Assembly (NCBI GenBank): GCA_016840425.1
Contig: JAEOSI010000138.1
Location: 1-6,195 of the forward strand
Direction of reading: 5' to 3'
Length of the DNA stretch: 6,195 nt
From: Candidatus Wukongarchaeum yapensis
Lineage (GTDB): Archaea; Asgardarchaeota; Wukongarchaeia; Wukongarchaeales; Wukongarchaeaceae
Shown: positions 1,681 through 6,134 of the stretch, in pieces
Layout of the letters: the number at the start of each line of letters is the position of its first letter
Numbering within the stretch: the first letter of the stretch is position 1
Program-made: the position numbers and the translations under genes
The notes under the pieces: generated by a model
What the model was told of the DNA's origin: nothing
The model's input: only the letters and a program-made list of their open reading frames with translations
Database searches by the model: none

Positions 1681-1757
1681 TTAAGATAAAAAATTACAAT
1701 TATGGATATTAATATGGATACTAATACTATTAATTAACAAATTATTAAGATAAAAAA
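1681..1757. repeat. Short direct and tandem repeats in an AT-rich intergenic region
   Basis: TTAAGATAAAAAA at 1681-1693 and 1745-1757 flank the tandem 12-mer TATGGATATTAA/TATGGATACTAA (1701-1724). Confidence 0.5.
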
Positions 1758-1791
1758 ATTTATAGTTATACATTTTATTAATATTATATAG
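1752..1791 (+). promoter_or_regulatory. Candidate BRE/TATA promoter(s) of the kaiC-like gene
   Basis: A7 then TTTATAG (1752-1765), and TTATATAG (1784-1791). The region is about 10% GC, so specificity is low. Confidence 0.35.
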
Positions 1792-1855
1792 AAACAAAGT
1801 AATAACTCTAGATTTTTGATTCCGAGGACTTTCTTATTTAGGGCAGGGTTACTAA

Positions 1856-2599
1856 ATGGATCGCGTTAAGACAACCATCCCGGGTTTTGAAGAAATGATT
1901 AAGGGGGGGTTACCTAGTAGTGAAACTTATGCTTTAATTGGTCCTCCTGGAATTGGAAAAACTATTTTTGGGTTACAATTTTTATATGGGGGAATTAAAT
2001 TGGGAGAAAATGGAGTTTGTGTTACTCTAGATGAAGCTACAGAATCATTGCTAGAAACAGGAAAATCTTTTAATTGGGATTTTGAAAGATTTATCGGCGA
2101 GGAAAAGCTGATTTTTCTAGATTCTTCGCCTTACAAAGGATTTCATGAAGATGAGTATTTTATTCATTCAGAGGATTCTGTTCTCGGAATGCCCGTTTTT
2201 AACACAAATAATTTGATCAAAAATATTGTTGAAGCTGTTAAAAAAGTGAAGGCACGTCGACTATTTCTTGATTGTGTAACTATGATAGAGCTTCAAAATA
2301 GAGAACCGTTTTCTCTAAGAACAGACCTTCTTGGTTTAAAGAGGGCTTTGAAATCGTTAAATGTAACCACTATTTTATCTTTTGAAGCAAAAAACGGGCA
2401 AGTTTTAGATTATATGGGGTTTGAAGCTTATATTTCAGACGGGGTTATAATTTTAGGTAGAAAAGACTTGGGGGACAGAAAAGTTCGATACATAGAAGTG
2501 CTTAAAATGCGTCATACATCTCATATCGAAGAAAAAAGACAGTTTAGGATTACTAATGAAGGAATTATTATTTATCCAGAAAAAGGACCTTTCTTGTAA
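1856..2599 (+). CDS. Single-domain KaiC-like / RAD55-family (COG0467-type) RecA-superfamily ATPase
   Basis: N-terminal RVKTTIPGFEEMIKGGLP, Walker A GPPGIGKT (nt 1940-1963), VTLDE (usually LEE), Walker B LFLDC (usually IDS), YISDGVIIL, IEVLKMR arginine-finger motif, FRITNEGI. Confidence 0.92.
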   Translation: MDRVKTTIPGFEEMIKGGLPSSETYALIGPPGIGKTIFGLQFLYGGIKLGENGVCVTLDEATESLLETGKSFNWDFERFIGEEKLIFLDSSPYKGFHEDEYFIHSEDSVLGMPVFNTNNLIKNIVEAVKKVKARRLFLDCVTMIELQNREPFSLRTDLLGLKRALKSLNVTTILSFEAKNGQVLDYMGFEAYISDGVIILGRKDLGDRKVRYIEVLKMRHTSHIEEKRQFRITNEGIIIYPEKGPFL

Positions 2600-2637
2600 A
2601 AAACAAAAAAACTCTCTAAAAATAGTTTTTTAGAGAG
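2598..2637 (-). terminator. 11-bp perfect hairpin followed on the minus strand by T7-G-T6
   Basis: CTCTCTAAAAA (2612-2622), loop TAGT, TTTTTAGAGAG (2627-2637). Adjacent + strand A-tracts at 2598-2603 and 2605-2611. Hairpin is certain; terminator function is inferred. Confidence 0.45.
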
Positions 2638-2658
2638 GTAATTTTCAAAGCTTCTCCA

Positions 2659-2680
2659 ACGTAATAACGTGTTTTTATAG
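2659..2680 (+). promoter_or_regulatory. Candidate TATA box of the longin gene, preceded by an ACGT-N4-ACGT dyad
   Basis: TTTATAG at 2674-2680; ACGTAATAACGT at 2659-2670; strong SD AGGAGG at 2754-2759. Confidence 0.4.
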
Positions 2681-2767
2681 GGGGCCGAAAGTTGGCGGTG
2701 TGGAGAATCTCGGGTTAAAACGCTTGAATAATTTAGATGATTTAGCGGTGATAAGGAGGAAAATGGG

Positions 2768-3946
2768 TTGATAACTAATGTTTATATAATAAGGCATGAT
2801 GGTTTACCTCTTGTTTCGTGGGGGCTTTTTGAAAGTCATCCTTTAGAGCTCATTTCGGGCTTTTTAAGTGCTATTTTATCATTTTCCACGGAATTGGGCT
2901 CGAAAAAACTTAATCTTCTTGATTTTGGGGACAAGAAATTTATTTTTAAAATTGAGAGCGATTTACTTTTTGTCTTGGTAGTGACAGAATATAGGGATTT
3001 TGCTGAGGGTATTGGGGTTTTAGAACTTATTGCTTCAAAATTTCAGGAAAATTACAATTTAAAAGAGGCGTTAAAATCGAACGTGGATATGTCATATTTT
3101 AAAAATTTTGAGGAGGATATTGTGACCATCGTCAAAGGCCCTATTGTGAGGGTTCAGGAAGAGCTTTTTGAGCTTTGTAGTAAGCAGGAGATAAAGGCAT
3201 GTGCAACCATCACGATGAAGGGCACCACGTTCTTACATGCTGAATCACCATATTTTTCAGGAGATTTAAAGCCGATTATTGATTTCGTAGTTTATTTTAT
3301 TAAGGGTCATAAAATTCTTGGTCGAGGACAACCCATCGAGTTATTCTTCTCCGATGACATTGGGCATATTTTTATTCTTCACATAGTTTCAGACATCTAT
3401 TTTTTTGTATTGGCTGAAAAAAAGTATTCATACACCTCGATCAGACGTATTATAAATCCGCTGTTAAATGAGTTAAGATCTGCCTTTAAAATGGTTTCAC
3501 CTGATTTCTTCTATGGACTAGAAACAAAAGATATTATTGAATCGTTTTTAGTATGGGCTAAAGATATTTATCCTTTTTCTAGTTTAAACTTGGACTTGTA
3601 TGATATCATTTTTGAGCCTTTAATACCGTATGATAATCGTTTTGTTCACTTTGATGCAATATTTCAACGTGGAAAAAGGTTCATTTTTTTGAGGGTTATT
3701 AAGGGAGCATTTCCCGCTTCAGACAAAAATGTTGAACAGGTTGTTTTTGATGTTAAATCGGTGTTAGGTGATAAAGAACTGATAATGGCAATATTATTGG
3801 GCCCAGAAGGAGTTTCAAAGAATGCGATTATAGCTGCTAAAAGACTACCAATAAGGATAAATGAGTTCTTTAAGTTTGTAACGCTTGTAACCATAGAAAA
3901 AGGAGAATTTAAAATAGTACCCTACGAAAAGCTCGTCCCTACTTAA
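2768..3946 (+). CDS. Multidomain protein: longin (aa ~1-122) + roadblock/LC7-like (aa ~127-241) + degenerate Mrr-type PD-(D/E)XK fold (aa ~252-392)
   Basis: Longin pattern: NVYIIRHDGLPL, LISGFLSAILSFS, beta-meander KFIFKIESDLLFVLVV, LELIASKFQENY, FKNFEEDI. Roadblock pattern: IKACATITMKGTTF...GQPIELFFSDDIGHIFI..VSDIYFFVLAE..SIRRIINPLLNEL. C-terminus HFDAIF..IFLRVIK..NVEQVV..AILLGPEGVSKNAIIAAKRLPIRI resembles Mrr_cat. TTG start 8 nt after AGGAGG; in-frame TGA at 2738 bounds the ORF. Confidence: ORF high, longin good, other two domains moderate. Confidence 0.72.
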   Translation: MITNVYIIRHDGLPLVSWGLFESHPLELISGFLSAILSFSTELGSKKLNLLDFGDKKFIFKIESDLLFVLVVTEYRDFAEGIGVLELIASKFQENYNLKEALKSNVDMSYFKNFEEDIVTIVKGPIVRVQEELFELCSKQEIKACATITMKGTTFLHAESPYFSGDLKPIIDFVVYFIKGHKILGRGQPIELFFSDDIGHIFILHIVSDIYFFVLAEKKYSYTSIRRIINPLLNELRSAFKMVSPDFFYGLETKDIIESFLVWAKDIYPFSSLNLDLYDIIFEPLIPYDNRFVHFDAIFQRGKRFIFLRVIKGAFPASDKNVEQVVFDVKSVLGDKELIMAILLGPEGVSKNAIIAAKRLPIRINEFFKFVTLVTIEKGEFKIVPYEKLVPT

Positions 3947-3988: not shown

Positions 3989-4010
3989 TTTTTTAAACTT
4001 GTTTTTTCTT
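3989..4010 (+). terminator. Oligo-T terminator of the longin gene in the convergent gap
   Basis: T6 at 3989-3994 and T6 at 4002-4007, downstream of the stop at 3946. Confidence 0.4.
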
Positions 4011-4911
4011 ATTTTTCTATTGATGCGGAGAGGTAGCCGACTATTGCGTCTTTTGACCCTCTTACATCGTAAGATGTCGCGTATTTTAGTGTTCTTCCTT
4101 TTGTTGCGCCTAAGGCTTTTGCTGCTATTATGCCGGCTGCCACGGGAGCACAACCGCACATCGTGAGCCCTTCATTTATTACAAGATCAATGAGGCCTTT
4201 AGCGTCGAGAGATTCTATGGTTTTGATTATTTTTCCATCTGTTTCATGTACCCACCCGATTACCTTTTCAATGGGCGAAGTTCCTATAGGATAGTAGCCA
4301 TACATGGCACCATAATGTGTTAAGTCTGTAGAAGAGACTATGAACACTTCTTTCTCTGATTCTTTTATTGCTGAAGCAACGCCTTCACCAGCCTCTTTAG
4401 AGGTGTTATAATCCATTAACCCCATGGCTATTGGGACAATCTTAAAGGATTCAGCTCCAAAAATATATTGTAGAAATGGTAATTCAACCTCTAGAGAATG
4501 CTCAGGGCGATGAGGTCTGTCTTCCTCGCTTATCACAACACTCTTTTTCTCTATAGTTCTTGCAAGCTCCGTATCGATCTCGGTTAAACCTAAAGGGCTT
4601 TCCCAAAACCCGCTACTCATAAGGGCTACACCCGGCCACCCGTAATGGCTGGGTCCGATAATGACTACAGTGTCTGGTCTTCCTTCTGAAGCTAAAGCAT
4701 AAAAACCGTGGGCAGCAATCTGGCCACTATAATAATATCCTGCGTGAGGACTAACTATGCTCAAAATACCTCTTTCAGCAATTTTTTCACCGATGGAGGG
4801 AAGTTTTCCAGGTCCAAAATCTCCCAAAAAACAGGCCTCCAACTGTTTAAGCAAACTATTCTTATCAACAGTTTCATAAAAGCCATACGCGGCAGGCTTA
4901 CGCACTTTCAA
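4009..4911 (-). CDS. amrB: MEMO1-family protein (AmmeMemoRadiSam protein B, COG1355)
   Basis: RKPA..GFY, SPHAGYYYSG, IIGPSH, WESPLG, EHSLEVELPFLQ, IVPIAM, SSTDLTHYG, TMCG, YATSYDV, VGY. TTG start 7 nt after AGGGGGA (4919-4925, minus strand). Confidence 0.95.
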   Translation of the reverse strand: MKVRKPAAYGFYETVDKNSLLKQLEACFLGDFGPGKLPSIGEKIAERGILSIVSPHAGYYYSGQIAAHGFYALASEGRPDTVVIIGPSHYGWPGVALMSSGFWESPLGLTEIDTELARTIEKKSVVISEEDRPHRPEHSLEVELPFLQYIFGAESFKIVPIAMGLMDYNTSKEAGEGVASAIKESEKEVFIVSSTDLTHYGAMYGYYPIGTSPIEKVIGWVHETDGKIIKTIESLDAKGLIDLVINEGLTMCGCAPVAAGIIAAKALGATKGRTLKYATSYDVRGSKDAIVGYLSASIEK

Positions 4912-4980
4912 ACAAAAATCCCCCTAAAAAAGCTCAATAAATTGATAACAAAAGCCTTCCTTTTAAATTTCTCGCAACAA

Positions 4981-4992
4981 AAATATATATTT
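4981..4992. promoter_or_regulatory. Palindromic TATA-like element in the divergent amrB/tmk promoter region
   Basis: AAATATATATTT is a perfect 12-bp palindrome between the divergent starts at 4911 and 5033; could act as TATA on both strands. Confidence 0.4.
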
Positions 4993-5032
4993 ATTACCAT
5001 AATGGTTAAAGTTTTTTGGAGAGTTTTTTTTG

Positions 5033-5689
5033 ATGGCAAGGAAGAATAGAGGTTTTTTCATAGTTTTTGAGGGTATTGATGGTTCAGGGACCAGCACACA
5101 TACACGGAAGGTCTCTACATGGCTTAGGAATTCAGGGGCTGAAGAAGTGGTACAAACAAGTGAACCCACAAAAGGCAAGATAGGGCGACTGATAAAGGAA
5201 CGGTTAAAAGAAGGAGGAGAGGAGAGAGGTAACAATATTGAGGAGGCAGTTATTGATGCTCTTCTTTTCGCAGCGGATCGGGTAGAACATGTAAAAAAAG
5301 AGATTTTACCCGCTCTTAACGAGGGAAAGATAGTGGTTTGTAGCCGTTATGTTGAAAGCTCGATCGTTTACCAAACCACGCAGGGATTAGATACAAATTT
5401 TATGGAGAAGATAAACAAGTATACGGTAAACCCTGACCTCGTAATAATCCTCGATATACCTCCAGAAATAGCCTTAAAAAGGGCAAAAAGGAAGAGATGG
5501 GAAAAATTTGAAAACAAACTTTTCTTAACAAAGGTAAGAGAACTCTACAAAAAAAGGGCAAAAGAAAAAGGATACACCCTCATAAACTCTAACCGTAACA
5601 TAAAAGAGGTAGAGAAGGATATCCAAAAAATCGTTTTAAAACACCTAAAAGAAACATTAAAAATCCAGATCGAAACCGAAAAACAATAA
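5033..5689 (+). CDS. tmk: Thymidylate (dTMP) kinase family protein with atypical catalytic motifs
   Basis: FIVFEGIDGSG(T)ST, SEPTKGKIG, LLFAADRVEH, ILPALNEGKIVVC(S)RY..SSIVYQ, PDLVIILDIPPE, KFE..LFL.KVRELY. ATG at 5033; the TTG at 5030 is an alternative; GGAG at 5018-5021. Confidence 0.9.
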   Translation: MARKNRGFFIVFEGIDGSGTSTHTRKVSTWLRNSGAEEVVQTSEPTKGKIGRLIKERLKEGGEERGNNIEEAVIDALLFAADRVEHVKKEILPALNEGKIVVCSRYVESSIVYQTTQGLDTNFMEKINKYTVNPDLVIILDIPPEIALKRAKRKRWEKFENKLFLTKVRELYKKRAKEKGYTLINSNRNIKEVEKDIQKIVLKHLKETLKIQIETEKQ

Positions 5690-5714
5690 TAATGAGAAAA
5701 CCTATTATCACCTT

Positions 5715-5778
5715 GGTGGCGATGAGGAAAGAGCAAAGAACCTGAAAAAAGATGAGGGATCGATGGGCAGTCCGAGCC
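5715..5778 (+). ncRNA. Candidate archaeal box C/D guide sRNA
   Basis: C box GCGATGA 5719-5725; 16-nt guide; D' CTGA 5742-5745; 3-nt loop; C' AAGATGA 5749-5755; 16-nt guide; D CCGA 5772-5775; closing stem GGT (5715-5717)/GCC (5776-5778) leaving a 3-nt K-turn bulge. 5711-5810 is 53% GC in a low-GC window. Confidence 0.7.
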
Positions 5779-5816
5779 TCCGCCACAACGCAAAGAAGTT
5801 TACGGAGGGAAAGAAA

Positions 5817-6134
5817 TCAACGTTGGGACTTAAGGCGTTCTAACACCTCAGAAAAAGTTAAATCTTCTTCGATTAAAACCTGCTTTTCTCGGGATTTTAA
5901 ACCTTTAACTATTTTAATCTTCGAAGAGCTCAAACCAAATGTTTTAGACAAAATTTTTACTAATTCCTTGTTTGCTTTCCCGCCCGTGGGGGGAGATTTT
6001 AAAAACACAACAATAAATCCCTCATTTTCATCAAAAAAAACTTCTGATCTCCCACTTTTTGGCTTCACAAAAACATTAAGAACAACACCATTACCCGAAC
6101 CATCACTAACAATAATATCCACAATTAACACCAA
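5817..6134 (-). CDS. DUF167 / UPF0235 (YggU-like) protein
   Basis: VVLNVFVKPKS, VFLKSPPTGGKANKELVKILSKTFG, IKIVKGLKSREKQVLI. The start could instead be the GTG at 6131 or 6122 (the latter has a GGTG SD-like site upstream). Confidence 0.92.
   Translation of the reverse strand: MVLIVDIIVSDGSGNGVVLNVFVKPKSGRSEVFFDENEGFIVVFLKSPPTGGKANKELVKILSKTFGLSSSKIKIVKGLKSREKQVLIEEDLTFSEVLERLKSQR

Follow-up and report, generated by a model that had tools for sequence, protein, structure and literature searches.

The stretch of DNA analysed here (the window, 6,195 nucleotides) is a whole contig of a 2.16-Mb genome that is 92% complete. It places the gene of a KaiC-like ATPase beside the gene of a protein with longin and roadblock domains, which raises the question of whether the two products work together and, if they do, what they would act upon. 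Archaeal KaiC-like ATPases have been presented as signalling hubs (Makarova, Galperin and Koonin 2017, as quoted in PMC5847659 and PMC4858521), and dimers of longin and roadblock domains serve as platforms for small GTPases (PMC10933270). A preliminary description of this DNA proposed that the longin/roadblock protein may serve the RecA-type ATPase in place of a GTPase. Our sequence comparisons support the pairing of the ATPase with the fusion protein and do not support its reading as a GTPase-free effector. We tentatively regard the fusion as a scaffold between the KaiC ring and a small GTPase whose gene would lie elsewhere in the genome, a reading to which we give a little less than an even chance.

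The locus and its KaiC-like ATPase

Along the contig, the order of genes is hypD, DUF123, the KaiC-like gene, the partner gene, MEMO1, dTMP kinase and DUF167. hypD, the 5′ end of which is cut by the contig edge, and DUF123, which follows after 37 bp, occupy positions 2-1631 and are conserved across the genus; the DUF123 product we take to be a GIY-YIG-type nuclease. Positions 4009-6134 hold the MEMO1-family gene (minus strand), the dTMP kinase gene (plus) and DUF167 (minus); in the sister species (G001), additional small ORFs take up about 2 kb between MEMO1 and tmk (L021:6694-7919). The KaiC-like ORF (1856-2599, plus strand, 247 aa) lies, as first described, directly upstream of the partner ORF (2768-3946, plus strand, 392 aa, TTG start) with a gap of 168 bp. 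Both genes are real and both are under purifying selection. The features of the first gene, its leader and the gap are as follows.

1735-1800, plus strand: AT-rich leader (GC 17.5%) with an archaeal TATA-like box, TTTATA, at 1759-1764; near-invariant in four genomes of the genus
1856-2599, plus strand: single-domain KaiC-like (RecA-superfamily) ATPase, 247 aa, CI-like (PF06745)
1940-1963, plus strand: Walker A, intact (motif comparison among Asgard paralogs)
2027-2035, plus strand: LDE at the position of the KaiC EE pair, the first E being D, as in 14 of 65 Asgard KaiC-like proteins
2120-2203, plus strand: equivalent of the B-loop, residues 89-116 (28 aa), from alignment with the KaiC CI B-loop
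2261-2275, plus strand: Walker B, LFLD(C), with Asp139 kept (invariant in 65 sequences) and followed by Cys, in a column that holds S, P, G, C or T
2504-2512, plus strand: K-x-R trans-acting finger (KMR; K217, R219), invariant in 65 sequences
2612-2637, no strand assigned: hairpin of 11 bp, -13.7 kcal/mol, z -2.9
2754-2759, plus strand: Shine-Dalgarno sequence AGGAGG, 8 nt ahead of the TTG start; AGGAG conserved in four genomes

The leader is probably the promoter of the KaiC gene, which would set this gene apart from hypD-DUF123. It also shows, at 1706-1725, a short direct duplication (TATGGATA twice) that is missing in a near-identical genome (L023). The gap, which ranges from 144 to 168 bp in the genus, had been described as carrying a hairpin together with its own TATA box and Shine-Dalgarno sequence. 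The hairpin is real and the Shine-Dalgarno sequence is conserved, but in the sister species the hairpin is absent and the TATA-like stretch degraded, the Shine-Dalgarno sequence being retained there. The hairpin is missing in L022 as well, and the gaps of these two genomes are about 21-23 nt shorter; as judged from these alignments, it is a lineage-specific element and not a conserved terminator. With an unconserved hairpin, a degraded TATA-like stretch, a Shine-Dalgarno sequence that is kept and a near-invariant leader ahead of KaiC, co-transcription of the two genes is thus possible. An out-of-frame ATG-GGT-TGA (2763-2771), not conserved in the sister species, overlaps the TTG start.

The ATPase had been called intact-looking, with a Walker A motif and a KMR finger, and this holds: it matches PF06745 over residues 4-243 with an E-value of 3e-57 (194 bits for a cut-off of 26.6), and the set of the KaiC superfamily (Walker A, Walker B Asp, catalytic acidic pair and K-x-R finger) is complete. 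The LDE and LDC that had been singled out as variants are not distinctive, given the 14 paralogs with the same Asp and the free variation of the residue after Walker B. Domain, size, Walker A and B motifs and finger are those of single-domain archaeal proteins such as PH0186 (2zts; E 2e-41) and PH0284 (2dr3), and the dN/dS of the gene is 0.21 (versus G001). We consider it an ordinary single-domain KaiC-like protein, predicted to hydrolyse ATP as a ring. It shares with other archaeal KaiC-like ATPases a candidate partner encoded alongside and relatives found near receiver domains and inactivated KaiC; it differs from them in that the partner is a eukaryote-like longin-roadblock fusion and in that its score is under the cut-off of every NCBIfam KaiC/ArlH family.

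Two more specific identities were rejected. With the CI domain of the cyanobacterial clock KaiC (with KaiB/SasA), the protein has in common a CI-like sequence and a longer loop at the B-loop position. Unlike clock KaiC, it has 247 aa and one domain, without CII, scores 167 bits for a cut-off of 408 and is encoded in a locus without KaiA or KaiB; it is not a clock component. The clock phosphosites of CII, S431 and T432, align to A191 and Y192, and clock-type autophosphorylation is therefore not expected. ArlH/FlaH was discarded at 42 bits for a cut-off of 215, with no archaellum genes nearby.

The B-loop of KaiC CI is part of the KaiB-binding site (PMC12208873). Its equivalent contains the His/acidic insertion noticed earlier, which does start at 2129 and is not an oddity: it is the variable B-loop, the length of which goes from 6 to 35 aa among paralogs, with a mode of 22, and is 28 here. 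At a dN/dS of 0.21, this loop is as constrained as the remainder of the ATPase, and it is a candidate docking loop for the partner.

Domains of the partner protein

The preliminary description recognized a longin-roadblock fusion. Both folds were found, and a third domain (residues 252-383) had been missed; the protein is modelled as longin, roadblock and a degenerate PD-(D/E)XK fold.

2768-3130, plus strand: domain 1, longin, residues 1-121 (VIA Z 11.5 to the VAMP7 longin domain, 2vx8)
3134-3508, plus strand: domain 2, roadblock, MglB/LAMTOR-like, residues 123-247 (Z 16.0 to MglB, 3t1r)
3521-3916, plus strand: domain 3, PD-(D/E)XK fold, Mrr/NucS-like, residues 252-383 (separate model, pLDDT 88.5)

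Sequence searches of Pfam, NCBIfam and PDB with the partner and with domain 3 alone gave no match, and since those of Pfam and PDB were blank, the longin and roadblock domains are assigned from structure. The full-length model has a pLDDT of 67, its longin part being of only moderate confidence. In VIA, the predicted longin domain, a sheet of five strands with one plus two helices, has longin topology (rmsd 2.8 over 111 residues of 2vx8), and the N-terminal domain matches longin proteins in 38 of 41 relatives. Those matches that bear a name are Asgard, which places the source organism, a member of a small family, in the Asgard archaea. The roadblock domain, with its N- and C-terminal helices, fits 3t1r with an rmsd of 2.4 over 123 residues and roadblock3 of MK-D1 with a Z of 15.2. 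Both domains superpose best onto GTPase platforms. The partner is in this respect like the MglA-MglB, Ragulator-Rag, TRAPP and Mon1-Ccz1 platforms, including a Rab-like GTPase that is co-operonic in one family, and its longin and roadblock folds are common to the Asgard longin/roadblock fusions (PMC10933270; bioRxiv 10.1101/2020.10.19.343400). Unlike those platforms, it unites longin, roadblock and a dead PD-(D/E)XK domain in one chain, has no GTPase domain and is linked to KaiC; a GEF or GAP role is putative.

The structural matches of domain 3 include AF1548 (1y88, Z 11.5), NucS (2vld, Z 10.3, VIA) and, in Atlas, Mrr_cat (TM 0.67), and the top 14 VIA matches are all PD-(D/E)XK proteins. It thus has a restriction-endonuclease-like core, the fold of the Mrr-like/NucS (EndoMS) nucleases (PF04471), of which the first Asp (Asp296) is kept in two lineages. 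In contrast to these nucleases, it has no Pfam match, the second acidic residue is missing in either register, and the Lys is missing in the homologs of families f16 and f22. As no homolog retains the (D/E)xK motif, the domain is most probably catalytically inactive, and DNA cutting is not expected. It is charge-neutral here (19 K/R versus 19 D/E). With a dN/dS of 0.57, compared to 0.19 for longin and 0.36 for roadblock, domain 3 is still under some constraint.

The partner family and the neighbours of KaiC-like genes

Profiles run against 400 Asgard genomes and protein databases indicated that the full-length family is rare, with five firm genomes and one possible genome among the 400. The pairing is conserved within the genus, along with the entire housekeeping block from hypD to tmk, and for that reason this conservation carries no information. 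Outside the genus, family f16 (genomes G020 and G040, plus a Logan contig) has a homolog with 25% identity over the full length (399 columns, E 2e-27), the domain 3 of which was recovered by a profile made from the window's own genus only (E 6e-10). There the genes run KaiC-A, Rab-like GTPase, homolog, KaiC-B (in L026, at 8045-11443), and are preceded by genes for PAS histidine kinases and receiver proteins. The GTPase, with intact G motifs, is directly upstream of the homolog in one operon, and the stop codon of the homolog overlaps the start of KaiC-B (translational coupling). Synteny thus supports the earlier suggestion that KaiC and fusion belong together, the pairing being found again in a distant Asgard family. 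In the five f16 genomes searched, homolog and KaiC-B always go together: three of these genomes have neither, two of the three being less than 80% complete. One f16 genome without the homolog retains a paralogous Rab-KaiC-receiver locus, so that Rab and KaiC may go together without the fusion. Loci of this paralogous type (L250:1161-4169, L249 and L258) hold Rab, KaiC and a degenerate-KaiC::receiver protein without a longin-roadblock protein.

The second outside lineage, f22, has a firm homolog in G108 (leave-one-out E 3e-6) with no KaiC nearby; a homolog of this type is found between a dual-specificity phosphatase gene and a ThiI-like gene, beside a histone gene (L253:3907-6533 / L095). In G107, also of f22, P0071 converges on a two-domain KaiC-like gene. 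It resembles the family by eye, leave-one-out profiles failed to retrieve its domains 2-3 (E about 0.5-1; hhalign probability 2.4%), and it was counted as possible only. P0010, P0056, P0057 and P0058 were rejected as full members, sharing only the N-terminal part. The longin gene of G005 that lies directly upstream of a long-loop KaiC-like gene (L057:5623-7582) was also rejected, as it encodes a different fusion, longin-TackOD1.

The pairing is therefore repeated in one of the two firm outside lineages, for a base rate of 0.6% of genes abutting a KaiC-like gene in the source genome; only two firm independent lineages carry it, with a different gene order in each. The KaiC-like protein of the window is only 29% identical to its f16 counterparts and is sister to them in no tree, a common clade with KaiC-B being not rejected (p-AU 0.11). 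It is long-branched and groups weakly with long-loop paralogs (93/89; 85 with the loop removed); in four of seven of these, the adjacent gene encodes a GTPase or a longin protein. Given this weak grouping and the lack of a sister relation to the f16 proteins, the pairing may come from family-level affinity rather than from strict co-inheritance.

In Asgard genomes generally, KaiC-like genes show ties to small GTPases. A GTPase, longin or roadblock gene is the direct neighbour of 25 of 107, in 10 of 17 families, and is found within two genes of 36 of 107, versus 4.1% and 7.0% in the source genome; these figures use labels from our own profiles, a background of one genome, kin that are non-independent and some loci that are short. 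In the conserved KaiC clade, none of 27 has such a neighbour. A wider contig scan for KaiC, made up almost only of non-Asgard loci, had a GTPase or roadblock gene nearby in 2 of 80, and is a weak control because the profiles were trained on Asgard proteins. Two families have degenerate-KaiC::GTPase fusions beside KaiC, KaiB-like and roadblock genes. The corresponding operon (L040:1109-3382, L199:2402-5690, L047 and L035; f7 and f18) consists of a KaiB-like thioredoxin, KaiC and a 387-aa degenerate-KaiC::MglA-like GTPase, and in L199 it adds a roadblock gene and a further KaiC-like gene.

No small GTPase gene is present in the window, as the preliminary description stated, nor next to the pair elsewhere in the genus. 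This absence from a 6-kb contig is without weight, because the source genome encodes, on other contigs, at least 17 GTPases of the Rab-like kind and several small GTPases of other kinds, together with 12 longin and about 8 roadblock proteins.

A possible link between KaiC and small GTPases

The operon of a distant relative includes a Rab-like GTPase as well as two KaiC genes, so that the pair is more likely to provide input to GTPase signalling than to take its place. The two genes would be the local part of an Asgard signalling module in which switches of two kinds, a KaiC-type ATPase and a small GTPase, are coupled. From the folds, motifs and gene context described above, we infer binding, GEF or GAP activity and the direction of the signal as follows. 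The ATPase would form a ring, the nucleotide state of which would control exposure of the long B-loop, as in KaiC CI. The partner would dimerise through longin and/or roadblock to give a GEF/GAP-type platform for a GTPase encoded elsewhere in the genome. Lastly, and this is the weakest step, the dead nuclease domain would be a non-catalytic module binding nucleic acid or protein, and the KaiC ring would gate the platform. In a stricter form, the fusion would be a physical bridge that lets a KaiC ring, driven by two-component systems, gate a GEF or GAP of the longin/roadblock type acting on a Rab-like GTPase, with the dead nuclease domain as sensor or anchor; this we consider unlikely. If true, Asgard archaea would possess, upstream of their eukaryote-type GTPase switches, a relay from ATPase to GTPase of a kind not yet described.

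The two genes could also be neighbours without any present functional link, an explanation that we place on the unlikely side without dismissing it. The fusion would then be a regulator of the usual Asgard longin/roadblock type to which an accessory domain is attached, made from its own transcript, and the adjacency would be a relic or would reflect a general clustering of signalling genes, which do cluster in Asgard genomes. A gap of 144-168 bp with its own Shine-Dalgarno sequence and, here, a hairpin leaves room for separate transcription; the G108 homolog is without an adjacent KaiC, the KaiC partners are not demonstrably orthologous, and Rab-KaiC pairs occur without the fusion. In MK-D1, moreover, the genes for GTPases and for their regulators do not, as a rule, share operons (PMC10933270). 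Against this stand the translational coupling in f16, the recurrence at 25% identity compared to so low a base rate, and the non-conservation of the gap hairpin.

Less probable still, and in our opinion decidedly so, is the reading of the preliminary description, in which the fusion acts on KaiC directly, as its adaptor or effector and with no GTPase involved, its longin and roadblock domains having been re-targeted to a RecA-type NTPase. It would fit with the lack of a GTPase beside the pair in the genus, with the long and conserved B-loop and with the proposal, known to us from its title, that roadblock proteins are general regulators of NTPases (Koonin and Aravind 2000, via PMC4316618). It is disfavoured by the co-operonic f16 Rab-like GTPase with its intact G motifs, by the ties between KaiC and GTPase genes in Asgard genomes, by the supply of GTPases in trans in the source genome and by the superposition of both domains on GTPase platforms. 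The most improbable of the explanations, which we retain at a very low level only, is a unit for DNA repair or DNA sensing, where the ATPase would be an aRadC/Rad55-like RadA paralog, acting with the upstream DUF123 protein, and the nuclease-fold domain would bind DNA. The repair-linked RadA paralog SSO2452 (2w0m; PMC10003305) is indeed a homolog, at E 1.7e-25, and both domain 3, by its nuclease fold, and the DUF123 gene upstream would suit this idea. However, KaiC and PH0186 score far higher, the conserved promoter-like leader separates the pair from DUF123, which itself follows hypD, the f16 loci contain kinases and receiver domains rather than repair genes, and domain 3 is charge-neutral and devoid of catalytic residues.

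For the preferred reading, that of a scaffold between the KaiC ring and a GTPase encoded elsewhere, each part comes from a known family. A literature search, the scope of which did not extend to the full text of Makarova et al. 2017, brought up no study of KaiC together with GTPase, longin or roadblock genes of Asgard archaea, and none on a longin-roadblock-PD-(D/E)XK fusion. Which regulator belongs to which small GTPase is recognized as an unsolved question in Asgard archaea, because the two are seldom encoded in one operon (PMC10933270). It is suggested by the present data that the eukaryote-type GTPase switches of these archaea may receive input from an archaeal KaiC and two-component network. 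The window locus is a reduced, GTPase-less version and so is less decisive than its f16 relative, where the family offers a compact testable set, with KaiC, Rab-like GTPase and longin-roadblock scaffold in one operon; the f16 locus (L026, L025) is the better one for experiments. In these contigs (L026:11-12508 and L025), the operon comes after a dense cluster of PAS histidine kinase and receiver genes, in which one receiver is fused to a domain that, by eye, resembles an inactivated KaiC.
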